A program made the position numbers and the translations under genes. The notes beneath the pieces are model-generated. The model was given only the letters and a program-made list of their open reading frames with translations. It did no database searches and was not told where the DNA came from. Of a stretch of DNA of 64,000 nt, positions 1,784 through 16,660 are shown one piece after another. The stretch is from Candidatus Rifleibacteriota bacterium. Lineage in GTDB: Bacteria; Muiribacteriota; Ozemobacteria; Ozemobacterales; Ozemobacteraceae. Where the stretch lies: positions 181,981 to 245,980 of the forward strand of contig JANJUX010000033.1 of assembly GCA_024710355.1 (NCBI GenBank), given 5' to 3'. Each line of letters opens with the position of its first letter. The stretch's first letter is position 1.

Positions 1784-3454
1784 TTATTCTTCATGCACTG
1801 AAATCAGCAGCTTTTCAGGCTGAACGAATTCGTCAGGAAAACCCGGAACATTTCCCTGCAGCTCTGCAAGGGTGTTTCCGGGTTTTTCTGTCAAACGCAG
1901 CAATTCTGCCGGCGGCAGATGCAGGCCCTTGAGAGTCTGGTTTTTAAAACTGAACTCCCGGGCCATATATTTTTTATTGAGAAACGCGCGACCAATGGTA
2001 ACCGGCACGCTGTCACCCTCGTAAACCATCATCAGAACAGCATTACCCGTCTGAGAAAAGACAATACGACCTGTCAGATCGCCTTTGATATTAAGCTTTT
2101 TCTGAAATTCGTCTTCGCTGATCGTCTCACCAAGCATCCCGGCTTCTTCATTGATCTGCAGACTTTCAAACCCGGCAGCAAAGTCAGCTGGAGTAACAAG
2201 CTCGGATGGAGACAGCTCCACACCGGCAATATAAAGATTGCCGGAACTGTCAGCATGCATTGCCTGTACCGGGAGCTCAGGAACAATAGTTTTTAAGTAG
2301 CTTGCCTTTGAAATACCGTTTTCATTGAGACTGAAGCAGTAAATCTTCTTCTCTGGAGCTGAATAAATAAAAGCTCTTGTCTGGCGACCCTCTTCGACAT
2401 TGCAGAAAACTGCCAGCGAACATTCAGAACCCGTCTGCTCAATGTTGTTTTCGCGCAACCAGTCGTGCAGAACATCGGTTCCGACTACATAGATGCGTCT
2501 TGAACTGCCAGAAACATTCATGCCGACAAAGCGTGACAATGGTGCTTTCGAGGCTATAGTCGGCTGAAAAATGCTTGGCTCGCCATTAATAAAGAAGGCA
2601 CCCGCATCTTTACCCGTCCAGGTGTGAACCAGCAGACTGCCTTCACCGATTGCACCCGAGCGATCGTGGTAACACGCAAATCCCGGAACACTTTCCATTG
2701 CTGCCTGGTTGTCGACCTCAGGAAGTATTTCCATGGCACCGTCGACTGCGGCCCTGAAAAACCTTCGGCTGATTCCCTTGCCGGCTTTTCGTTCAAATAC
2801 CCTGCCCGGAATGAATCCACGCCAGATTGATTCCTGGCAGAAAAAGTTCTGCTCCTGCCAGCAGTCGTAAAAGATCTTGTATGACTCAGAAGCCGGCTGT
2901 TCAACAGGAAACCAGGTCTGATACCAGCTGCCATTAGGTAATTTATACCAGCTACGACCTTCGACCGGTGCATATTCGCCTTCAGACAAACCCGTTCGTG
3001 CGATGCCGTCACTTACCGGGTGCCCCGGCCCAGCACTGAATGGGGCTCCCGCTGGCCGAAAAACCGGCTGACCATCAGCACCGGCAACGAGACTGCTTCT
3101 CTGGTCCTGGTGCTGTGAATGCCCGTGTCTGCCACGATCAGCGTCTACGGCCAGTCCATCGAAAACCTGCCGATAAATATGGCCGGGCATTCTGACAAAT
3201 TCGCCCTCACGCACAAGATTTACAAACCGGTAATTGCGCAATTTATCGACCATAAATGCCTCTGCACCTGGATCGCACGCAAAAATAAACCCGGTTGGCA
3301 GCTGGTTCTGGTCACCGGTTGAAAGACGAAACACTTTGCCGGCATCTTTATAGCCAAGATACAGATAGCTTTCAAATGCACCAGCCGGGGCACACATGGC
3401 GGTATAAATCAGCGTTGCCGCTGTAATCAGCCTGGCAAAAGGATTGCGCATCAA
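1784..3454 (-). CDS. secreted hypothetical protein (signal peptide)
   Basis: 556-aa ORF, N-terminal hydrophobic signal (LITAATLIYTAMCAPAGA); no recognisable catalytic motif. Confidence 0.5.
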   Translation of the reverse strand: MMRNPFARLITAATLIYTAMCAPAGAFESYLYLGYKDAGKVFRLSTGDQNQLPTGFIFACDPGAEAFMVDKLRNYRFVNLVREGEFVRMPGHIYRQVFDGLAVDADRGRHGHSQHQDQRSSLVAGADGQPVFRPAGAPFSAGPGHPVSDGIARTGLSEGEYAPVEGRSWYKLPNGSWYQTWFPVEQPASESYKIFYDCWQEQNFFCQESIWRGFIPGRVFERKAGKGISRRFFRAAVDGAMEILPEVDNQAAMESVPGFACYHDRSGAIGEGSLLVHTWTGKDAGAFFINGEPSIFQPTIASKAPLSRFVGMNVSGSSRRIYVVGTDVLHDWLRENNIEQTGSECSLAVFCNVEEGRQTRAFIYSAPEKKIYCFSLNENGISKASYLKTIVPELPVQAMHADSSGNLYIAGVELSPSELVTPADFAAGFESLQINEEAGMLGETISEDEFQKKLNIKGDLTGRIVFSQTGNAVLMMVYEGDSVPVTIGRAFLNKKYMAREFSFKNQTLKGLHLPPAELLRLTEKPGNTLAELQGNVPGFPDEFVQPEKLLISVHEE

Positions 3455-3626
3455 GCACCTCTCAATCGAACAGATTTAACTAGGGAATTTTATCACAAAG
3501 TTCTGTTAAAACAAAAATACAAAATGACTCTTTGAGCAAAAGGCCCGCCACCAGTTTTACCGGCAGCAGGCCTTGCGGTTTTCGTATCATCTGGGCAGCA
3601 ACTTACTGAATACCGCCCGTCTTTAT

Positions 3627-4904
3627 TTATTTGACGCTGAAAGGATTGGTAGTTTCGGTCTTAACTTTGATATCGGCAGGTCTGCCGGTATTGGTGGCTT
3701 CAGTACCAGAAGCAGCCGTGCCGTTCTCTTCGGCGTCTTTTGCTTCGGCACGGGCTTTAAGCCAGGCTTTGGCGGCATCTGATTTGCCAATGTATTCCAT
3801 CATTTCTTTGTCCGAGAGCTTGCCAAACGTTTGTTCATCGATGATCTTCGCCATCTTTTCGATATCGCCGGGGTTCTTTTTGGCAAATTCGAGTGTCAGT
3901 GATTTGAGGCTGCGAAACAGTTTCCAGCGGGTTTTCAGGAAGGCATCAAAAACCTTGTTTTTACCACCATCGATTTCGGTGGCCATGCGGTGCATGATTA
4001 CGGCGTTGATACCTTCGACACACATTAGCTGCTCGCCGGTCAGTGTTTCTGGTTCGACGTTGGTGTAGTCGCCAGCTTTTTCTTTACTTTCAACCTTGAC
4101 CAGACTGATGTTGTTTCGCATCTGAGTGGCTTTTTCCTCGGAATCGAGCATTTCGTTGAATTCGGCCCAGCCTTCGACAAAAGCGCTGCGCGGCTTTGAC
4201 AATTCGTTGGCATAGTGAGAACCGTCTTTGCCGTATGGATGAATGAATTCTTTGATGGTGCGGTCAAATGAATGGGCAAATTCATGCACAAAGGTCGATC
4301 TGGCACTGACGTCTGAGCCAGGCCAGCTATAGCGATTGCTCGACATCTGTATGGTCGGACCGCTTGAGTAGGGCCAGAAATCATCTTTGATTTCCGGATA
4401 TTTGGCAGGATCATCGAACCCGGTTGTATCAGAGAGAATGACGTTGATTGAAGATCTGAAATTATATTGCATGCGATCTTTAACATCCTGCGACTTAGAA
4501 TGGCGATAGACAGCCAGCAGAGCTTTCTGGCCATCTGAAAGTTCAGACTCACTTTTGGCACCCATCAGCTGCAGAAGCTGTTCTTCGCTGGTCACCTTGA
4601 CGCGTTTTACATCGTAGGCAATGTTTTTGTTGTCTGAATACCAGCGTTTAGTGCCTTCACCCGGGGCATAATTGCGGGTTACGGCCTTTTCCCAGGTCTT
4701 TTTCACCAGATTGACACCGCTCTTGAGAAAGCTTTTGGTATGCCCCCACCAGCCCTCGGGTTCAGGGTCGTTTATCTGCACCACCTTTTCGATGCACTGG
4801 TAATAAAAATCGAATTCACAGTCTTTGGCAGCGGCAGAATAAGGCTGCAGGCAAAAGACAGTCGCTACAAACATCACCAGCAGCAACATTTTAATTTTTT
4901 TCAA
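3627..4904 (-). CDS. secreted HExxH zinc-metalloprotease-like protein
   Basis: 425-aa ORF with signal peptide MKKIKMLLLVMFVATVFC and HEFAH (HExxH) motif. Confidence 0.5.
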   Translation of the reverse strand: MKKIKMLLLVMFVATVFCLQPYSAAAKDCEFDFYYQCIEKVVQINDPEPEGWWGHTKSFLKSGVNLVKKTWEKAVTRNYAPGEGTKRWYSDNKNIAYDVKRVKVTSEEQLLQLMGAKSESELSDGQKALLAVYRHSKSQDVKDRMQYNFRSSINVILSDTTGFDDPAKYPEIKDDFWPYSSGPTIQMSSNRYSWPGSDVSARSTFVHEFAHSFDRTIKEFIHPYGKDGSHYANELSKPRSAFVEGWAEFNEMLDSEEKATQMRNNISLVKVESKEKAGDYTNVEPETLTGEQLMCVEGINAVIMHRMATEIDGGKNKVFDAFLKTRWKLFRSLKSLTLEFAKKNPGDIEKMAKIIDEQTFGKLSDKEMMEYIGKSDAAKAWLKARAEAKDAEENGTAASGTEATNTGRPADIKVKTETTNPFSVK

Positions 4905-5326
4905 GGTTGGCTCCTGAATTTAACGGGCCGGGCCCGGAATAAGGCAATTTTTAAAAACTTACGCATACTAGCGAAACATTTTCTAATTATACAGTCAGAC
5001 ACAAAAAACACCAGACCGGTCGATGCAAATCAGAAAGCAAACACGCCTGGCCTTTGTCACAGCAACCAGCAGCGGCTGGGTTTGCTTGTCCGGGCAATAT
5101 CGAGTTCTCCGGCATTTTCCCTCAGATAATTTATACCACTGCGAAGTGAAAAAAGTTTTTCAATTGCGGCGGGCAAAAAGGGGTACATAATTATGTAAAC
5201 CGTACAGCCGCTCAAAAAATTTATGTACACCGTCTTGACAAAAACGATTTTTATTTTTGCAATGCTTTTTTCAACGAACCTCTGAAATGCCCATAAATAG
5301 TTGTTGTCAAGAGGGTAGCTTTTTTA

Positions 5327-5388
5327 TTTTTCCACAGCATTAACATCGCTTGCAATGCTTTTCCCCAAAGTTTTCCACATTTTCCACG
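5327..5388. promoter_or_regulatory. cluster of 3-4 DnaA-box-like 9-mers (TTTTCCACA/G)
   Basis: ttttccaca at 5328-5336 and 5371-5379, ttttccacg at 5380-5388, ttttcccca at 5360-5368; same 9-mer family as the boxes upstream of dnaA. Confidence 0.4.
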
Positions 5389-5474
5389 CCAAAACAGGGT
5401 ACAGTCTGCCGCAAGATTTTTAGGCGGTGCTCCTGGCTTAAAATGCGGTTTTCAAAAGGTGCATAATTTACCAG

Positions 5475-5506
5475 ATAAAAAAAATCTGCGGTTACCCACA
5501 GATTTT
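5475..5506 (-). terminator. rho-independent terminator downstream of dnaX
   Basis: Minus-strand hairpin AAATCTG-N10-CAGATTT followed by T7 run (plus-strand A-run 5475-5483). Confidence 0.5.
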
Positions 5507-5534
5507 TCGCGCCATATTATCAGTTTTTTAATAA

Positions 5535-7319
5535 CTAATCGTCGATGCTGATTATTTCACCGCCAAAAACCTCCAGAGCGTCGGCAACAGACGGTTTTTG
5601 CAGCATTTTCTGCCGTGCCTGCTCATCGATTTTTGCTATCTGCTCAACATGACTCAACCGTACAGGCGGGGTTTCTTCACCAGACGACCCCTGAGCCCCG
5701 GCCATGCCTATTCTCACGGTATCAATGTTGCCGTACACTGCTTTTGCAGCTTCGAGAAGAATTGCGTGATTCTTCTCTTCCTTAAGCTTGCCGGCTGCAA
5801 ATGTCTGCTCCAGCAGAATTTCAAGTATCCCGTTTTCTGGCTTTTTGAAACGGGCATTTACCAGCAAAGCCTGACAAACATTGGATCTGCTGCCAACTGC
5901 GTTGCGAAATTCCGCGAAGGGGTCGGTATTTTTCGACGTTACCGTAGTCATCGGCACCACATTGTCCGGCAGATGCGTCGGCCTTGGCGTAGAAGGCGAC
6001 TGCGACGACACCAGCGTCGGGCGCGCAGATGGAGCTGAAGTCGGCTGGGTAACCGGGGCCATTGCAGGTGCCGGCCGGCCGCCACGTGCCATACCAGTGG
6101 CACCAGGTTGACCTGCCAGCCTTTTAACTGCGGCCAGCTTTTGTTCAAGCTGCTCAACCCTTTTTTCAAGCGCTTCAGAAGCAAAGATCTCGTCGCCGAG
6201 ACCGAGACGAATCAACTCTGATTCGAGCAGCACTCTGGCCTGAAGTGAGCTTCTGATTGTCATCAGAGCCCTTTCGACCCGGGTAACGGCGCCGATCAGA
6301 TAACGTGCCGACAGCTGGCCGATCTGGTTTCTGAGTTCGGCGGCCTGTTCGGCCGGAAGATCGAGAACCTGGTTCGCCTCAGGGTCGATGCGCAGTATCA
6401 TGCAGCGCCGCAGATATTCGAGCAGGTCGCGCCCGATGGTCTGTGGCTCGTAACCTCGGAAATACAGGTCGTTCAGCTGCTTGACCAGAGCGGCAAGGTC
6501 ATGCGCAAAAATGGCGCCGGCAATGGTTTTGAGCGTCGAATAGCTCAGACGCCGCGTCATTTCAAGAACCTGATCGAGGGTTATCAGCTCAGTCGAAGCC
6601 GAGGCCGAGATCTGATCAAGCAGACTGAGCGCATCGCGAAATCCGCCTTCGGCACATTCAGCGATCATCGAAAGCGCTTCGGGCTCAAAAGCCGGAAATC
6701 CGCCATCGGCGTTTTCGAGTTTGACGATCTCTTCAAGGCGGGCCTGAATGGTTCGCCGCGAGACCGAATGAAAATCGAAGCACTGGCAGCGTGAAATAAT
6801 AGTGGCCGGCACCTTCTGGGGGTCGGTGGTGGCCAGAACGAAAAGTACATTCGGAGGCGGCTCTTCAAGCGTTTTGAGAAAGGCGTTGAATGCCGAACCC
6901 GAGAGCATGTGCACTTCGTCGATGATATAAATTTTGTATTTACCCTCGGCCGGGCGGTATTTAACCTTTTCGCGCATCTGCCTGATGTCTTCAACGCTGT
7001 TGTTACTTGCCGCATCGATTTCGATGATATCCATGAAATTCATCTCTTCGATACGCCGGCAGTTATGGCAGACGCGGCAGCAGTCGGGCAGACCGCGGGC
7101 ATCTTTCTGCAGGTCAGTGCAGTTGAGAATCTTGGCAAGCAGGCGGGCGGCCGAGGTTTTACCGGTGCCGCGCGGCCCGGAAAACATATAGGCGTGGGAA
7201 ATACGATCAGAAGCGACCGCAGACTGAATGGTGCGTGAGATGTGTTCCTGGCCCGACAGTTCAGAAAAACGCTGGGGGCGATATTTGCGATACAGGTTCT
7301 GGCGGGCTGGTGCGGTCAT
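5535..7319 (-). CDS. dnaX: DNA polymerase III subunit gamma/tau
   Basis: YRKYRPQRFSELSGQEHI...GPRGTGKTSAARLLAKILNC Walker A/clamp-loader signature; zinc module CxxC..CxxC; located next to SRP RNA as in Bacillus scr-dnaX. Confidence 0.9.
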   Translation of the reverse strand: MTAPARQNLYRKYRPQRFSELSGQEHISRTIQSAVASDRISHAYMFSGPRGTGKTSAARLLAKILNCTDLQKDARGLPDCCRVCHNCRRIEEMNFMDIIEIDAASNNSVEDIRQMREKVKYRPAEGKYKIYIIDEVHMLSGSAFNAFLKTLEEPPPNVLFVLATTDPQKVPATIISRCQCFDFHSVSRRTIQARLEEIVKLENADGGFPAFEPEALSMIAECAEGGFRDALSLLDQISASASTELITLDQVLEMTRRLSYSTLKTIAGAIFAHDLAALVKQLNDLYFRGYEPQTIGRDLLEYLRRCMILRIDPEANQVLDLPAEQAAELRNQIGQLSARYLIGAVTRVERALMTIRSSLQARVLLESELIRLGLGDEIFASEALEKRVEQLEQKLAAVKRLAGQPGATGMARGGRPAPAMAPVTQPTSAPSARPTLVSSQSPSTPRPTHLPDNVVPMTTVTSKNTDPFAEFRNAVGSRSNVCQALLVNARFKKPENGILEILLEQTFAAGKLKEEKNHAILLEAAKAVYGNIDTVRIGMAGAQGSSGEETPPVRLSHVEQIAKIDEQARQKMLQKPSVADALEVFGGEIISIDD

Positions 7320-7412: not shown

Positions 7413-7682
7413 GTCGTGCACCTGACTTCGAACATACGTCAATGGTACGTATCCTGAACTATAGGCTCCGGACAGGCGCTGCCACATCACCCGAAAGCGA
7501 TCGTTTACCGTTGCTACCTTCCGATCCTGGCGGAGTTCACGGACTTTCGCCGTGTGGAACCCGTCCTTCGATGCTTCTAGAACTGGCCGTTGCCACCAAC
7601 AATGCCCTCTGTCAGGAATTCGATCCGCCTGGCGGGGATTTGCGGTGGATAAGGGACCCCGAGCCCCCCATCTAGCACGACA
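7413..7682 (-). ncRNA. ffs: signal recognition particle RNA, large Bacillus-type with Alu domain
   Basis: Minus-strand 5' GUCGUGCUAGAUGGGGGGCUCGGGGUCCCU...CCGCAAAUCCCCGCCAGGCGGAUCGAAUUCC aligns with B. subtilis scRNA Alu domain; domain IV motif CCAGGAUCGGAAGGUAGCAAC; 3' end GGUGCACGAC pairs with 5' end; ~270 nt. Confidence 0.8.
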
Positions 7683-7683
7683 A

Positions 7684-7771
7684 CGGAAAGGGCGGGATTC
7701 GAACCCGCGGTGGAGTTGCCCCCACTCACGCTTTCCAGGCGTGTGCCTTAGACCAACTCAGCCACCTTTCC
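7684..7771 (-). tRNA. tRNA-Ser (anticodon GGA)
   Basis: Cloverleaf with long variable arm; acceptor GGAAAGG/CCTTTCC; anticodon loop CUGGAAA; no encoded CCA; 3' end abuts SRP RNA 5' end. Confidence 0.85.
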
Positions 7772-7806
7772 GATTGAGGGAAAATTAAAACCCTCAGAAA
7801 AGAGCA

Positions 7807-7882
7807 ACGCGCCCGAGAGGACTCGAACCTCTGGCCACCAGATCCGCAATCTGGTGCTCTATCCAAACTGAGCTACGGGCGC
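7807..7882 (-). tRNA. tRNA-Arg (anticodon GCG)
   Basis: GCGCCCGTAGCTCAGTTTGGATAGAGC...anticodon stem CCAGA/TCTGG with loop UUGCGGA...GGTTCGAGTCC T-arm; 76 nt. Confidence 0.8.
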
Positions 7883-7892
7883 AAATTCGCTT

Positions 7893-7981
7893 CGGAGAGA
7901 GGGGGATTTGAACCCCCGGTACCAGTTACCCAGTACGACAGTTTAGCAAACTGTTGGTTTAAGCCACTCACCCATCTCTCC
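7893..7981 (-). tRNA. tRNA-Ser (anticodon GCU)
   Basis: GGAGAGATGGGTGAGTGG...anticodon loop UUGCUAA, long variable arm, GGTTCAAATCC T-loop. Confidence 0.85.
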
Positions 7982-7992
7982 AGAGATGCAAT

Positions 7993-8075
7993 CGGAGGAA
8001 GTAGGATTCGAACCCACGGAGCTTTCACCCTGCGGTTTTCAAGACCGCCGCCTTAGACCACTCGGCCATTCCTCC
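7993..8075 (-). tRNA. tRNA-Ser (anticodon UGA)
   Basis: GGAGGAATGGCCGAGTGGTCTAAGGCG...anticodon loop CUUGAAA, variable arm, GGTTCGAATCC T-loop. Confidence 0.85.
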
Positions 8076-8080
8076 AGTGC

Positions 8081-8734: not shown

Positions 8735-11440
8735 TCAGTCGGCAGTCTCTTCTTTCGACGGAATTCTGACGACAGAGATCAGCCTGTCATCGCCATCGAG
8801 AGTTATCAGCTTGACCCCGGAAGCGGCGCGACCGGTGTTTCTGATCGAATCGGCGCTCAGACGCACGACTTTGCCGTTGGTGGTGACGACCATCAGCTCA
8901 TCACCCTCGAACATGCGTTTGATTGCGAGAACTTCGCCGGTCTTTTCCATGATCTTGAGGTTGATGACGCCTTTACCACCACGATGAGTAACGCGATAGC
9001 TGTTGACATCGGTCTTTTTGCCGAAACCAAGTGCCGAAACGGTCAGCAGCCGGCCTTCATAGCGACCATCATCTTCGACTGGCGGCGCGGTTTCGCCATC
9101 AGGGGCCTCGTCGATGATTTCGTCTTCGATAACTTCATCGACGACTTCATCAATTACCTCATCGATCGGCGCTTCTGCTTCGGCAGCCACGGTAATATCG
9201 CCATCAACAGACGGCACTACGGCAACATGCAGCTCGCCATCGTCATCTTTCTTGCGGCTGAAAACTTCCATGCCGATTACTTCATCGTTCTTGTCTCTGA
9301 AGGTGATGGCTTTAACCCCACGGGCTGTTCTGCCCATGACGCGCACTTCACTTTCAGGGAAACGTATGGCATAGCCGTTGCGGGTCGCAATAACCACCTG
9401 CTCGCCGCCGTTGATTGGTTTGACGCCAATCAGTTCATCGCCCTCGTCAAGCTTGAGTGCAATTATGCCGCGAGCCATCGGTCTGGCAAACGCCGACAGA
9501 ATGACCATCTTCGAGACACCCTTGCGGGTTACCATGAACAGACGGCGTGTATCGTCAAACTTCTTGATCGGCAGAATCGCAGTGAGGGTTTCGTTCTCTT
9601 CGAACTGCAGCAGATTGACCATGGCGCGGCCACTTGCCTGGCGACCGCCTTCGGGTATCTGGTAACCCTTGATCCAGTGCACTTTGCCGATCGAAGTGAA
9701 TACCAGCAGATATGAATGGGTCGTGGCCAGGAACATGTGTTCGACGACATCTTCGTCTTTGACGCCCATGACATTGCTGCCCTTGCTGCCACGGCTGATC
9801 TGCCTGAAAACGCTCGGTGACATGCGTTTGACATAGCCGTTCTTGGTCAGGGTGATGATGATATCTTCTTCCTGCATCAGATCTTCGACATTCAGTTTTT
9901 CGGCTGAAGATCTGGTAATCTTGCTGCGGCGGGCATCACCGAAGCGGGCTTTGATGTCGAGGAGTTCTTCTTTGATGATTTCTCTGACCTTCTCGTCTGA
10001 TTCGAGAATGCCTTTGAGCTTCTGGATCAGAGCCAAAGTATCGTGATATTCGGCGATGATCTTGTCGCGTTCGAGGCCTGTCAGTCTCTGCAGTCGCATT
10101 TCAAGAATCGCCTGTGACTGTTTATCAGAGAGCATGAAGGTATCCATGAGGCCCTGTTTGGCTTCATTCGGATCTTTAGCTGATTTGATCAGCTCGATGA
10201 CCGCGTCGAGATTGTCTAGAGCGATCGTCAAACCTTCGAGAATGTGGGCCTTTTCTTCGGCCTTGCGCAGCTGGAACACGGTTCTGCGGCGAATGACTTC
10301 GCGGCAGTGATTGACATAGTGTTCCATCATTTGCTTGAGATTGAGAACCAGCGGGCGGTTGTCGACGAGAACCAGGTTGATTACGCCGAAACTGCTCTGC
10401 ATCTGAGTGTGCTTGTACAGCTGGTTGAGAATGACATCGGTATTAACGCCCTTGCGCAGTTCGATACAGACGCGCATACCTTCGCGGCTCGACTCATCGC
10501 GCAGGTCGGTAATGCCATCGATCTTCTTTTCCTTGATCAGATCGGCGATTGATTTGACCAGGCGGGCTTTGTTGACCTGATAAGGCAGTTCGGTAACGAC
10601 GATGCGGTCGCGGCCCTTGTTGAATTCTTCAATTTCGACGACCGAACGAACGACGATGCTGCCGCGGCCGGTTTTGAAGGCTGATTCGATGCCATCGGTA
10701 CCCATGATGATACCGCCGGTCGGGAAATCCGGGCCGGGAATATGGTTCATCAGCTCATCAATGGTTACTTCAGGGTTGTTGATCAGCTGAATCAGGCCGT
10801 CAATGACCTCCGCAAGGTTATGAGACGGCATGTTGGTCGCCATACCAACCGCGATGCCTGATGAACCGTTGACCAGCAGATTCGGAAACTTGCTGGGCAG
10901 CACGATCGGCTCATTCAGAGAGCCATCGAAGTTCGGCATCCATTCAACCGTTTCCATCTCGATGTCTTTGAGCATTTCTTCTGCCAGGGCTTCGAGACGG
11001 GCTTCGGTATAACGCATTGCCGCTGCTTCATCGCCGTCAACTGAACCAAAGTTACCGTGACCGTTGATCAGCGGGTAACGCAAGCTGAAATCCTGGGCCA
11101 TGCGAACGAGGGTGTCATAAACAGCTGAGTCGCCGTGCGGGTGATACTTACCAAGAACTTCCCCGACGGTGCGGGCTGATTTGACGAAAGGTTTCTTGCT
11201 GGTGATGCCCTGATCGAACATTGCATATAGCACACGGCGGTGAACCGGCTTCAGGCCATCTCTGACGTCTGGCAGAGCGCGGCCGACGATTACGCTCATC
11301 GCGTAATCGATGTATGAAGCCTTCATATCGTCTTCGATATTGATATGTCTGATGCCTGTCGTTGGTGGCGGAGGAGGAGGAGGAGGAGTCTCGATACCGC
11401 CAGTTTCCTCGACAGGAATATTTTCGTTGATGTTATCCAT
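8735..11440 (-). CDS. gyrA: DNA gyrase subunit A
   Basis: [33 protein letters not shown]...catalytic Tyr region; CTD beta-pinwheel; unusual N-terminal tail with PPPPPPPP and acidic CTD insertion. Confidence 0.95.
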
Positions 11441-11456
11441 TATGAAAGCCCCTTAA

Positions 11457-13481
<2,025 letters not shown>

Positions 13482-13766
13482 TTAATATCGATACTGGGAA
13501 CTCATCTTCCATTCAGCCTTCAGGTATTCTGCCTGCTGAAAGGGGTGACAGATTCCGCGTTGTGCAAGTGCTTCGGGGGAAAGGGTCGAACCGATCCAGC
13601 GACCATCAACGGTTTTGATGGCTGCCCGGTATTCGCCCGCATCTTCAAGCTTCGGCAGAGTCTCGACCACACGCCGGCGCGTGGCTTCATCGACAGTCTG
13701 CAGATTTATGATCAATTCACAGGTCTTGAAATCAACGAACTCATTTTGACCGATATGAATCAGCAT
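13482..13766 (-). CDS. DUF370 (RemA/RemB-like) protein
   Basis: MLIHIGQNEFV...AAIKTVDGRWIGSTLSPEALAQR matches RemA pattern (I.IG.....LIDATYGRRTR.VII.....LS...PETVAQR); same position upstream of gyrB as B. subtilis remB (yaaB). Confidence 0.6.
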   Translation of the reverse strand: MLIHIGQNEFVDFKTCELIINLQTVDEATRRRVVETLPKLEDAGEYRAAIKTVDGRWIGSTLSPEALAQRGICHPFQQAEYLKAEWKMSSQYRY

Positions 13767-14728
13767 TCTGGTTCTCCGGGTTTGATTGCCAGGTAAGCAT
13801 GCCAGCGTTCATCAGGCACCTCCTGGGTATTCAGATGTTCAAAATCCACTTCATCAGGCATGCAGCCGCTGAAAAGCATCATGCTGCGCACCATCTCTTT
13901 GCGCATGCGGGCTGCAGTCTCTTCGTCGTAATTCAACGAAAGATCGGCCGCCAGTTCCTGGATTAGGTTCAGGCTTTCATCGAGCAGTTCGGCACGAATT
14001 GCTTCGAACTCAACGATGGTAAGGCCGCTTTCGAATTCGCAAACTTCTTCAAGCGTCAGCCAGGGCATTTCTGAAATCAGCACCCTGGCCTTTAAAAGGT
14101 TGTCTTCGCGGGTTTTATAAACACACATCGCACAGACACCGTTTTTCGAGCGGGTTACTGCGGCACGGCACAACACACACAGTTTATAGCCGCGTTCTTC
14201 GAGACCCTTTAGTCTGGCGTTCAGCTTCTGCTGACAACGACGCATCTGTTCTGACAATTCCTGATCCTTTAACTCTGCCATTGGCACTTCATCTTCGCTC
14301 TGCCAGTCGGGCCAGGTGGCTTCTTTAACCATCTTTTCGACTTCCGGCGGTATTACCCCCGGCTTGCCGACCACTTCGCCGATTTTCATCTCGGGGAAAA
14401 GCTCATTAAGCTTCTCGATAATTCTGGCTTTGAGAAACACCAGTGTCTGCATCCACTGGCTGTCGGCTACCGCAAGATAGAGGCGGCCCTTGATCAGACG
14501 GGTCGGGCAGGTTTTGGCGGCCAGCTGCAAACCGACAACGTCTTTCCAGGCGTTGATGAGTTTGCCAAGCGTAACCAGCTCTTTTGCCGTCAGCACAAAG
14601 CGCTGGCGGTTCTCAGACGCACGAAAGGTGGCTTCGCGCATGCCTGACAAGGCTTTGACCAGAGAGAAGCTCGCGGGTTTCGTGCCGCCGACTCTCCGGT
14701 TCGCTGCAGTCTGCTTGAAGGTTTCCAT
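13760..14728 (-). CDS. dciA: DciA-like DUF721 protein with C-terminal zinc-ribbon extension
   Basis: N-terminal ~110 aa resemble DUF721 (as Mtb Rv0004 between recF and gyrB); C-terminal CVLCRAAVTRSKNGVCAMC CxxC-N13-CxxC; overlaps DUF370 by 7 nt. Confidence 0.55.
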   Translation of the reverse strand: METFKQTAANRRVGGTKPASFSLVKALSGMREATFRASENRQRFVLTAKELVTLGKLINAWKDVVGLQLAAKTCPTRLIKGRLYLAVADSQWMQTLVFLKARIIEKLNELFPEMKIGEVVGKPGVIPPEVEKMVKEATWPDWQSEDEVPMAELKDQELSEQMRRCQQKLNARLKGLEERGYKLCVLCRAAVTRSKNGVCAMCVYKTREDNLLKARVLISEMPWLTLEEVCEFESGLTIVEFEAIRAELLDESLNLIQELAADLSLNYDEETAARMRKEMVRSMMLFSGCMPDEVDFEHLNTQEVPDERWHAYLAIKPGEPEC

Positions 14729-14881
14729 TGGCCCTCTGGCTGTTGTCAGTCAATTCCCTCTCAGGGAAGAAGAGAGGGTGTAATATACTACTCTAAAATG
14801 ACTTTTTTTTCAAGTAGTAACAACAGTCGGAAATTAGCTTAAAAACGCCTCTCGTAGCGTTTTTAAACGGGCCGGCAATAC

Positions 14882-16294
14882 TTATTGCTTATCGGGGTCG
14901 ACAAAGCGTCTGACGCGCTCGAATTCTTCGGCAAATGCCTTTTCCTGTTTGAGCTTGCGGTTAACTTTATCGCAGGCGTGCATGACGGTCGTGTGGTCAC
15001 GGCCACCGAATTTGTCACCGATCTGATTGAGTGAGGCATCGGTAAAAATCTGACACAGGCGCATGGCAACCTGCCTCGGAAGCACGAGATTCTGCGAACG
15101 CCTTTTCCCGGTCAGTTCGCTTTCAGAAATATCGTAAAATTCGGCGACGCGTTTTTGAATCCAGGGAATACTGATCTTGCCACCGGCATTTTCACGCAGA
15201 ACGTCTTTGAGCACCTGGTCGACCATATCCTTGCTGACCGGTTTTCGCATGATGCCGGCAAAGGCGAGAACGCTGTTGAAGGCGCCCTCCAGATCGCGAA
15301 TATGCGATACGACGTTCTGAGCCATATACATGATGATCTCGTCTGATACTTCTACCATTGACTGGCTGGCGAATTTTTTAAAAATAGCGGCGCGCATTTC
15401 GAGGTCTGGTGGCTGAATATCTACTACCACACCCATACCAAATCTTGAGGCCAGGCGTTCTTCGAGTGATTCGCCACCGCGCTGAATCTTGCTTGGAGCT
15501 GAGTCAGAAGTGAGAACGATCTGTTTTTTCTGCTGAAAAAGTTCATTAAACGTGTGAAAGAATTCTTCCTGGGTCTGTTCTTTGCCGGCAAAAAACTGCA
15601 CGTCATCGATCAGAAGCAGGTCAATTTTGCGATATTTCGAACGAAACGCTTCGGCTTTTTTATCTTTCAGCGAATCGATGAATTCGTTGGTGAAAACTTC
15701 TGAAGAAAGATAGGCAATCTTGGCTTTTGGGTTGTTTTTAAGCAGTTCCTGGCCGATTGCCTGAATCAGATGGGTCTTTCCAAGGCCAACGCCGCTGTAA
15801 ATGAATACCGGGTTATGAAGGCTGCCGGGGTTTTTAGCTACTGCCTGGCAGACTGCGTAGGCAAACTGATTGCTCTTGCCGACGACAAACGAATCAAATG
15901 AATACTTGCTGTTAAACATGCCGTCATATCTGGCCGGAACTGTTTTAGCAGATTTTAGTGGTTCATCATCGGTTCTGATTGCCGGAATTGTCGGCTGCTG
16001 AGGTTTGCCTGCAGCCGGCCGGCCGGTTTTAGTCACCAGACGATATTTGAGAGCCGGCTTTTCGCCGCTGAGAATGCGGGTAATTACATCGGCATAACGC
16101 TTTTCTGCGAGGTCGCGGCAGAAATCGTTTGCGGCTTCCATGACCAGATGGTCGCCTTCAATAGCTGCCGGCGTGATGGAACTGAGGAAAATCTTTGAAC
16201 TTGCCTTGTTTTTACTGCTTCCATCAGCCTGGATTTCTGTGGTGATTTTATTCCAGAGCGTATCGAGCGACGATATCATGTACAATGACCTCAC
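14882..16294 (-). CDS. dnaA: chromosomal replication initiator DnaA
   Basis: AAA+ Walker A IYSGVGLGKTHLIQAIG, DnaA domain IV DHTTVMHACDKV; DnaA boxes upstream. Confidence 0.95.
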   Translation of the reverse strand: MRSLYMISSLDTLWNKITTEIQADGSSKNKASSKIFLSSITPAAIEGDHLVMEAANDFCRDLAEKRYADVITRILSGEKPALKYRLVTKTGRPAAGKPQQPTIPAIRTDDEPLKSAKTVPARYDGMFNSKYSFDSFVVGKSNQFAYAVCQAVAKNPGSLHNPVFIYSGVGLGKTHLIQAIGQELLKNNPKAKIAYLSSEVFTNEFIDSLKDKKAEAFRSKYRKIDLLLIDDVQFFAGKEQTQEEFFHTFNELFQQKKQIVLTSDSAPSKIQRGGESLEERLASRFGMGVVVDIQPPDLEMRAAIFKKFASQSMVEVSDEIIMYMAQNVVSHIRDLEGAFNSVLAFAGIMRKPVSKDMVDQVLKDVLRENAGGKISIPWIQKRVAEFYDISESELTGKRRSQNLVLPRQVAMRLCQIFTDASLNQIGDKFGGRDHTTVMHACDKVNRKLKQEKAFAEEFERVRRFVDPDKQ

Positions 16295-16389
16295 AGCTTT
16301 GTGTACAACAACTTTAGATAACCAGAGAAAGCAATAGCCACGTAAAACGGGTTATTCTGCGTTTGTTGGGATGCTTGAATAATAGCAGA

Positions 16390-16660
16390 CAAAAGCCTTA
16401 TCCGCAAGGTTTTTTAGCATCAATGTTCTGATAATGATCTGGAAAACAATGTGGAAATTATGTGGAAAAATCGTGGAAAACCACAAACATAAAAATATGT
16501 TAACAAACAGTGAAAAACTTCAAAGGCTTTCAACAACTTTTTCCACATCAGCTAATAACGACCTGAAAAGTTGTACACGGGTTTTCCACAGTTTCCACCG
16601 AACCTAAAGAATAATAAGACTATTTCTTTTAATTAATTATGTACAACATAATTATAGCCA
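16390..16660. other. chromosomal replication origin (oriC): DnaA-box cluster + AT-rich DUE
   Basis: DnaA-box 9-mers at 16398-16406 (ttatccgca), 16449-16457, 16461-16469 (tgtggaaaa), 16472-16480, 16539-16547 (ttttccaca), 16582-16590, 16591-16599; AT-rich 16600-16660; immediately upstream of dnaA. Confidence 0.7.

Follow-up and report, generated by a model that had tools for sequence, protein, structure and literature searches.

A conserved four-box DnaA module downstream of dnaX in Riflebacteria, a candidate DnaA-assembly site outside the replication origin

A 64,000-nt stretch of the genome of a Candidatus Rifleibacteriota bacterium (Ozemobacteraceae; GenBank assembly GCA_024710355.1, contig JANJUX010000033.1, positions 181,981 to 245,980 of the forward strand), referred to here as the window, carries downstream of the clamp-loader gene dnaX a non-coding module of ∼180 bp (5224 to 5403) in which four DnaA boxes and a small set of companion motifs are held in a fixed arrangement. 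The module is clearly under selection. With about even confidence, and on comparative grounds, we read it as a candidate orientation-independent DnaA-assembly site that would restrain or modulate initiation, like datA of Escherichia coli or the DnaA-box clusters (DBCs) of Bacillus. The window was compared with its closest genome, represented by one locus (L001), with 27 metagenome loci gathered via the HExxH-motif protein encoded on the other side of the module, and with further loci retrieved by exact protein look-up. Once pooled, these loci resolved into 18 distinct Riflebacteria lineages, whose DnaX proteins range from 94% down to 45% identity to that of the window. The names carried by homologues assign the organism to Candidatus Rifleibacterium. 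To our knowledge, this phylum has no cultured member. The module lies in the 630-bp intergenic region that extends from the dnaX stop to the TTG start of the HExxH gene (4905 to 5534), both genes being on the minus strand, and it follows dnaX in every lineage examined.

The four boxes occupy 61 bp of the plus strand; two of them are exact and two carry one mismatch. Box 1 (TTTTCCACG; 5380 to 5388) is a variant that also occurs at 16472, in the likely origin (oriC) upstream of dnaA, and is directly abutted by box 2 (TTTTCCACA; 5371 to 5379), which is the commonest variant in that origin. Box 3 (TTTTCCCCA; 5359 to 5367) is a non-consensus near-box, putatively a weak one, and box 4 (TTTTCCACA; 5328 to 5336) starts 31 bp from it. 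Relative to box 1, the boxes start at offsets 0, 9, 21, and 52 in 12 of the 18 lineages; the last gap is one base shorter in three high-GC lineages, and one box is too diverged to register in three of the 18. All four share one strand in every lineage compared, and the starts at 0, 21, and 52 would place boxes 1, 3, and 4 about two and five helical turns apart. Box 3 reads TTWTCCCCA in 17 lineages, the exception being the most distant one (L106), so that its deviation from the consensus is itself conserved. Both box 1 and box 2 are degenerate in a low-GC lineage (TTTTCAACA and TTATGCACA, respectively), which is represented by the module loci L093, L094, L102, L113, and L114. In most of these low-GC loci, and in no other lineage, a further box (TTATCAACA) lies in opposite orientation past the TGTACA site described below, giving a partly DARS-like opposed pair (e.g., L113, 9428 to 9631).

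Box counts were set against 100 dinucleotide-preserving shuffles of the window, scored on both strands. The 9-mer TTTTCCACR occurs nine times, whereas the shuffles yielded a mean of 1.7 ± 1.2 and a maximum of 4. Three of these copies are in the module, four are upstream of dnaA (16461 to 16590), and the remaining two are singletons within open reading frames (ORFs; 50443 and 50985); all intergenic copies in the window thus fall into two clusters. The same two clusters are the only ones in the 64 kb with at least three boxes when one mismatch is allowed. An earlier note on this DNA, made from its letters alone, had pointed to DnaA-box-like 9-mers at 5328 to 5388 that matched those upstream of dnaA; the 9-mers and the shared variants are indeed there, and the enrichment that it left to be checked is borne out within the window, with 7 of the 9 copies in the two clusters. 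Could the module nonetheless be due to chance, or be a functionless relic in decay? Boxes with one mismatch are generally frequent (45 in the window versus 30 expected), and nothing more speaks for this explanation. None of the 100 shuffles reached the observed count, and the spacing is base-pair exact among lineages with DnaX identities of only 45 to 66%, although their flanks cannot be aligned. The comparative data effectively refute such an origin of the module, to which we give a negligible probability.

Beyond the boxes, alignment of the 18 lineages delimited further conserved elements. The module is bounded by two GTAC/TGTACA sites. One of them (5398 to 5403; TGTACC on the minus strand) lies at a constant 10 bp from box 1, on its outer side: GTAC occupies the same alignment index in 17 of the 18 lineages and is part of TGTACA in most relatives. 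The other is a TGTACA at the opposite edge (5224 to 5229). A 13-mer, TACCCTCTTGACA (5305 to 5317, minus strand), is the most conserved element besides the boxes; its TTGAC begins 17 bp after box 4, or 18 bp in four lineages, and is found in all 18. It is matched by an inverted copy, CACCGTCTTGACA (5228 to 5240, plus strand), which is identical at 11 of 13 positions and faces inward, and which is absent in L097, L099, L103, and L112. The sequence TCTTGACA occurs twice in the whole window, both times as the inward-facing arms of the module. The arms are separated by an AT-rich spacer (5241 to 5304; ∼71% AT, identity 0.36) that holds TTGCAA and one copy of a direct repeat; across lineages, the arm-to-arm distance ranges from 69 to 83 bp. 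In the minus-strand orientation of the window, the consensus runs TGTACA-N10-[nGTGGAAAA][TGTGGAAAA]-C.A-[TGGGGAWAA]-N22-[TGTGGAAAA]-N11-TACCCTCTTGACA-AT-rich variable spacer-TGTCAAGAyGGTG-TGTACA. Mean pairwise identity is 0.84 over boxes 1 to 3, 0.66 over the 101-column core, and 0.45 in the 22 bp that separate box 3 from box 4, versus 0.28 to 0.32 in the flanks.

Other features of the intergenic region are confined to the window or to its close relatives. The perfect palindrome TACATAATTATGTA (5184 to 5197) and the 12-bp direct repeat TGCAATGCTTTT (5258 and 5351) listed in the earlier note are both present. The former lies outside the universal core and is the collapsed form of a longer arrangement in relatives, GTTTACATAA-N4-GTGTACAC-N4-TTATGTAAAC, and the latter is specific to the window's genome, not being conserved as a repeat. 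In the stretch from the dnaX terminator to the module, two short blocks (5428 to 5470) are conserved in no lineages other than the closely related window, L001, L082, and L086; their minus-strand sequences are GTAAATTATGCAC and GCATTTTAAGCCAGGAGCAC, with an AGGAG that is not followed by a conserved ORF. The 94%-DnaX-identity relative L082 carries in its unconserved spacer (9700 to 9810, i.e., ∼470 to 580 of the dnaX-HExxH intergenic region) an inserted pair of GC-rich palindromes resembling repetitive extragenic palindromic (REP) elements (TTCGTCATTCCCGCGCAGGCGGGAATC ... CCCTGCCTTCGCAGGGATGACG), which is absent from the window.

Three further readings of the conserved sequence were considered and discarded. 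An 18-codon ORF spanning boxes 2 to 4 (MWKT...VEK*) holds only in close relatives; the frame is lost in L097, where the spacer is one base shorter, in L103, which lacks the stop, and in the low-GC group, which lacks the start. As for a structured RNA, Rfam searches of 4800 to 5650 at gathering and permissive thresholds returned only sub-threshold noise, and fold z-scores of the module on the two strands were 0.10 and -0.11. Finally, a hairpin formed by the two 13-mer arms was discarded since compensatory changes are missing and each arm is conserved as sequence.

The position of the module relative to the origin was established from sequence layout, the GC skew of the 64-kb window being too noisy to place an origin. 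Between 1784 and 16294, every confirmed gene is on the minus strand, the switch falls at 16295 to 16638, and genes run on the plus strand from 16639. The 344 bp between dnaA and this switch contain no fewer than eight boxes, some in each direction, at a point where the flanking genes diverge. A pair of directly abutting tandem boxes (16582 and 16591) leads there, across a 15-bp spacer, to six NAN trios (AAAGAATAATAAGACTAT) and DNA of 84 to 86% AT; DnaA-trios were scored as at least three NAN repeats within 16 bp of a box. Tandem DnaA boxes with DnaA-trios constitute the basal unwinding layout described in PMC8287927. On this basis, the likely true oriC was placed at ∼16295 to 16660, upstream of dnaA, and the module ∼11 kb into the left replichore. 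The dnaA-upstream layout is conserved in L001, and the distance of 11 kb is shared by the window, L001, and L118. The separately identified origin thus bears out the ∼11-kb separation given in the earlier note, and the motif that it reported in the AT-rich flank of oriC (16635 to 16645) is in place.

The tetranucleotide GTAC links the two regions. It is under-represented 2.5-fold in the window (44 observed versus 109 expected), and four of its occurrences fall within 231 bp at the module and palindrome (5183, 5202, 5225, and 5399; Poisson P = 2e-5) and another four within 391 bp at oriC and the dnaA start (16280, 16303, 16573, and 16641; P = 2e-4). These clustered sites are conserved in L001. 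At a low-GC dnaA locus, four of the five TGTACA sites in 21 kb are within 320 bp upstream of dnaA (L115, 9691 to 9995). The composite TGTGGAAAA-N3-5-GTGTACAACTTTT is common to the window's oriC and the low-GC dnaA locus, the DnaA proteins being only 67% identical. Such clustering suggests a second origin-associated factor, or a methylation mark, common to oriC and the module. One of the sites (in 16277 to 16294) bears on annotation: the dnaA ORF is listed at 14882 to 16294 (minus strand) with a GTG start at 16294 and 470 amino acids, but the start is more likely the ATG at 16279, which fits a 99%-identical database DnaA of 465 amino acids. This ATG overlaps a conserved TGTACA.

These shared elements bear on the idea, also raised in the earlier note, that the module is the second half of a split origin, or else an auxiliary or dormant one. 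It has the box variants of oriC, including a directly abutting tandem pair like that at 16582/16591, shares with oriC the GTAC/TGTACA and AATTATGTAC motifs, and has precedents in the bipartite origins of Helicobacter pylori and Bacillus subtilis (PMC3479198). Known bipartite origins, however, are divided by dnaA alone, whereas ∼11 kb and six genes intervene here. What an origin would need for unwinding is missing as well: beside the tandem boxes, the longest NAN run is of 1 to 3 repeats in all relatives versus six at oriC, and the AT content is 49% (41 to 78% in relatives) versus 84 to 86%. Genes do not diverge at the module but all run one way through it, and the oriC upstream of dnaA is complete by itself. 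A low-GC lineage also keeps the module though its dnaA locus has nothing in common with its dnaX locus within ±10 kb; the dnaX loci of this group and the low-GC dnaA loci (L115 to L117) were paired only by their similar GC content (31 to 35%). We therefore regard a split origin as very improbable.

In its genomic context, the module keeps to dnaX and not to the downstream gene. It lies 130 to 350 bp past the dnaX stop in nearly every lineage, and 1.5 kb past it in L099, where a 297-codon ORF is inserted. In L097, L099, and L112, other genes separate it from the HExxH gene while it still follows dnaX; two of these lineages, L097 and L099, have as its next neighbor a gene transcribed toward it. 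In the five low-GC loci, the module is inverted relative to both neighbors, as a block between its TGTACA sites. The sequence arrangement is thus maintained independently of orientation and of downstream context. In the same group, gyrBA no longer precede dnaX, and the low-GC dnaA locus has its own box cluster upstream of dnaA, without dciA-gyrBA-dnaX behind it; no shared genes were found within ±10 kb of the dnaX and dnaA loci. Bacterial dnaX loci do not in general have boxes clustered after the gene: among a control set of 79 from other phyla, only one (L067) has such a cluster, and that one is origin-like. In this Clostridia metagenome-assembled genome, five DnaA boxes and then a trio-like run (TACTATTACTACTAT) follow dnaX-ybaB-recR (12581 to 12790), and the cluster is possibly that genome's origin.

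On the minus strand of the window, read from right to left, the genes are dnaA, dciA, gyrB, gyrA, three tRNA-Ser and one tRNA-Arg genes, the signal recognition particle (SRP) RNA gene, dnaX, its hairpin terminator, the box cluster, the HExxH gene, and a 556-codon ORF. The dnaX gene (5535 to 7319, minus strand) encodes the clamp-loader tau/gamma subunit with the Pfam domains DNA_pol3_delta2, lid, and gamma3, and ends in an intrinsic terminator, a hairpin plus T-run at 5477 to 5507 (minus strand) whose stem shows compensatory changes in L001. The HExxH gene (3627 to 4904, minus strand; 425 codons, TTG start at 4904) encodes a protein with a signal peptide and the motif HEFAH. Pfam returned no match for this protein or for the 556-amino-acid one that follows (the two within 1784 to 4904), and those of the 120 homologues of the HExxH protein that are named carry only Riflebacteria or Ozemobacteraceae names. 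Farther upstream (8735 to 16294), dnaA is accompanied by dciA, gyrB, and gyrA, with no dnaN beside it, an order also found in L001, L111, and L118. The three tRNA-Ser genes, the tRNA-Arg gene, and a large SRP RNA of the Alu-domain type (7414 to 8076) lie directly upstream of dnaX; we take this tRNA-Ser/SRP RNA/dnaX arrangement to resemble that of Bacillus.

The unbroken linkage raises the possibility of a function tied to dnaX itself, in which a DnaA complex would modulate read-through or termination at the dnaX 3' end, or read-through would remodel the complex. Such a role would couple clamp-loader expression to initiator status and explain why the module stays after dnaX despite rearrangements on both sides. 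In the low-GC group, no hairpin terminator is obvious in the stretch from dnaX to the module, and E. coli datA is reported to lie downstream of a tRNA operon, with read-through transcription controlling IHF release (PMC10950094). The window's genome, however, has a strong bidirectional terminator between dnaX and the module, and both the inversion and the insertion of the 297-codon ORF in L099 have been tolerated. A small breakpoint target may alone account for the linkage, and of the 79 dnaX loci of other phyla a single one has such a cluster, which is origin-like. We consider a dnaX-linked function quite unlikely.

Transcription was weighed in two further forms. The earlier note had proposed a DnaA-regulated promoter for the metalloprotease-like (HExxH) gene, which the evidence disfavors. 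This gene has a promoter of its own, with a TATAAT -10 element at 4986 to 4991 (minus strand), ∼82 nt before the TTG start and ∼340 to 400 bp from the boxes, across a spacer that is unconserved and of variable length. Intergenic sequences of 11 lineages were read for this element, which is TATAAT in most relatives and TACAAT in two; the dnaX-HExxH gap spans 403 to 796 bp across relatives. Nor does the HExxH protein qualify as the regulated target, since the module tracks dnaX rather than the HExxH gene, is inverted in five loci, and is missing from the different context of a paralogue of ∼480 amino acids (L108).

The second form is a DnaA-controlled promoter within the module, in which TACCCTCTTGACA would supply the -35 element, box 4 would be centered near -57, and transcription would yield a small RNA or serve the genes downstream. 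The motif TTGACA equals the -35 consensus exactly (in L106, it is TTGACT) and stands 17 to 18 bp from box 4 in all 18 lineages. DnaA-box clusters also regulate neighboring genes in B. subtilis (PMC3245932), and a Pseudomonas cluster is reported to regulate the gidA promoter (PMC13438810). A sigma-70 promoter is nonetheless incomplete here: no -10 hexamer was found 16 to 18 bp past TTGACA, where the sequences TTTCAG, TTTGCG, TTTCGA, TTTAGA, and TATAGA lack the -11A and -7T, whereas the promoter of the downstream gene shows a canonical TATAAT to be in use in this phylum. A promoter scan gave no match at the conserved TTGACA, and sigma-54 -24/-12 elements, looked for by eye at the module, were absent. 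A second TTGACA faces the first, 69 to 83 bp off, which would make the promoters head-on. The predicted transcript is unconserved and unstructured, and no constant downstream transcription unit has been kept; in the five inverted loci, or in L097 and L099, transcription would run into a convergent gene or into dnaX from its 3' end. An internal promoter is in our view unlikely.

We return to a DnaA-assembly site as the reading that we favor. Under it, boxes 1, 2, and 4, of which two are consensus and one is near-consensus, would recruit DnaA, and the head-to-tail boxes at fixed spacing would nucleate a short, oriented DnaA oligomer. The phased geometry, combined with a deliberately weak box 3, would render occupancy cooperative, with a plausible sensitivity to ATP-DnaA. 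A partner factor bound at the 13-mer TACCCTCTTGACA and/or TGTACA probably helps by shaping the complex, the candidate sites for such a protein being TACCCTCTTGACA and GTGTACAAC. Since there is no unwinding element near the module, the complex would leave the DNA unopened and would instead sequester or inactivate DnaA, with a negative effect on initiation. In the window's genome, a site 11 kb into the left replichore would be copied almost immediately after initiation.

Several observations weigh against this account. Fixed spacing, a conserved weak box, and an additional 13-mer are more than simple titration needs, and the true mechanism may therefore be a more specific one or another altogether. 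A function involving DnaA only leaves the strict linkage to the dnaX 3' end unexplained. The early-duplication argument is weakened by the low-GC lineage, in which the module is apparently not close to oriC. The exact -35 TTGACA at a fixed distance from box 4 also hints at an involvement of RNA polymerase. A further proposal, which we put forward only tentatively and think unlikely, is that the module is a lineage-specific catalytic regulator of DnaA, having arisen independently in Riflebacteria as a functional analogue of datA, which stimulates the hydrolysis of DnaA-bound ATP, or of DARS, which promotes the release of ADP from DnaA. In that case, the four-box geometry, the obligatory weak box, and a factor at TACCCTCTTGACA and/or TGTACA would jointly alter the nucleotide state of DnaA; TGTACA is likewise concentrated at oriC in an otherwise GTAC-avoiding genome, and the tie to dnaX would couple DnaA control to clamp-loader expression.

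Non-origin DnaA loci that tune initiation are known from few models, namely, datA and DARS of E. coli, the clusters of Bacillus and Streptomyces, and oriCII of Pseudomonas. To these, comparative genomics of an uncultured phylum adds a module with base-pair-level conservation, a putatively weak box, and two co-conserved motifs. It provides a precise, clonable 180-bp substrate and an explicit mutation set for work with recombinant DnaA, and it could help origin-prediction tools to avoid miscalling such clusters as origins. In B. subtilis, six DnaA-box clusters lie outside oriC, mostly origin-proximal, and their deletion leads to early initiation (PMC3245932). Like these DBCs, the module is an intergenic cluster of consensus boxes outside the origin and could by analogy bind DnaA stably and restrain initiation; in the window's genome it is also origin-proximal (11 kb), whereas in the low-GC lineage it is apparently not. 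Unlike them, and with no sequence relationship to them, its four boxes are rigidly arranged, one of them being conserved as a putatively weak box, it is tied to dnaX, and it has the additional conserved motifs TACCCTCTTGACA and TGTACA.

In architecture, the module is closest to minimal datA of E. coli, which comprises 183 bp with boxes 7, 2, and 3 and an IHF site, the boxes being of high and low affinity and pointing in one direction (PMC5742627). Shared features are the size of ∼180 bp, the co-orientation of the boxes, a gap between boxes, a possible accessory-factor site, and a location downstream of a unit that starts with tRNA genes; the conserved non-consensus box 3 may correspond to the low-affinity box that datA requires alongside its high-affinity ones. 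The two are not homologous, however. An IHF site would not fit into the 22 bp separating boxes 3 and 4, a stretch that is also unconserved, and no convincing IHF consensus was found in the module. Compared by eye with what we assume to be the IHF consensus (WATCAANNNNTTR), the 13-mers fit 7 of 9 specified positions, a weak resemblance. In E. coli DARS1 and DARS2, the core is made up of three boxes, of which box I is oriented against the other two, II and III (PMC5742627). The module resembles it as a small non-coding cluster of three or four boxes at fixed spacing, and DARS2 also needs accessory proteins. All four boxes of the module are head-to-tail, however, and no opposed box was found within it in the window or in most relatives, so that the defining head-to-head pair is missing and the module stands apart from DARS. 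The datA/DARS-like locus suggested in the earlier note thus survives in its datA/DBC form, which fits the co-oriented boxes best, and not in its DARS form, which requires an opposed box I.

The abutting tandem pair recalls the basal unwinding system (PMC8287927) as it occurs at the window's oriC, but at the module no trios or AT-rich region accompany it. The Pseudomonas oriCII/gidA-upstream cluster (PMC13438810) is similarly a second near-origin cluster that is not an active origin; it differs in sitting at a promoter that it regulates, an arrangement against which the geometry of the module argues. No concept is overturned by these comparisons, as origin-proximal clusters outside oriC were explicitly predicted to be widespread (PMC3245932). 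The module is best filed as a lineage-specific, conceptually expected addition to the extra-origin DnaA-box regulatory loci.

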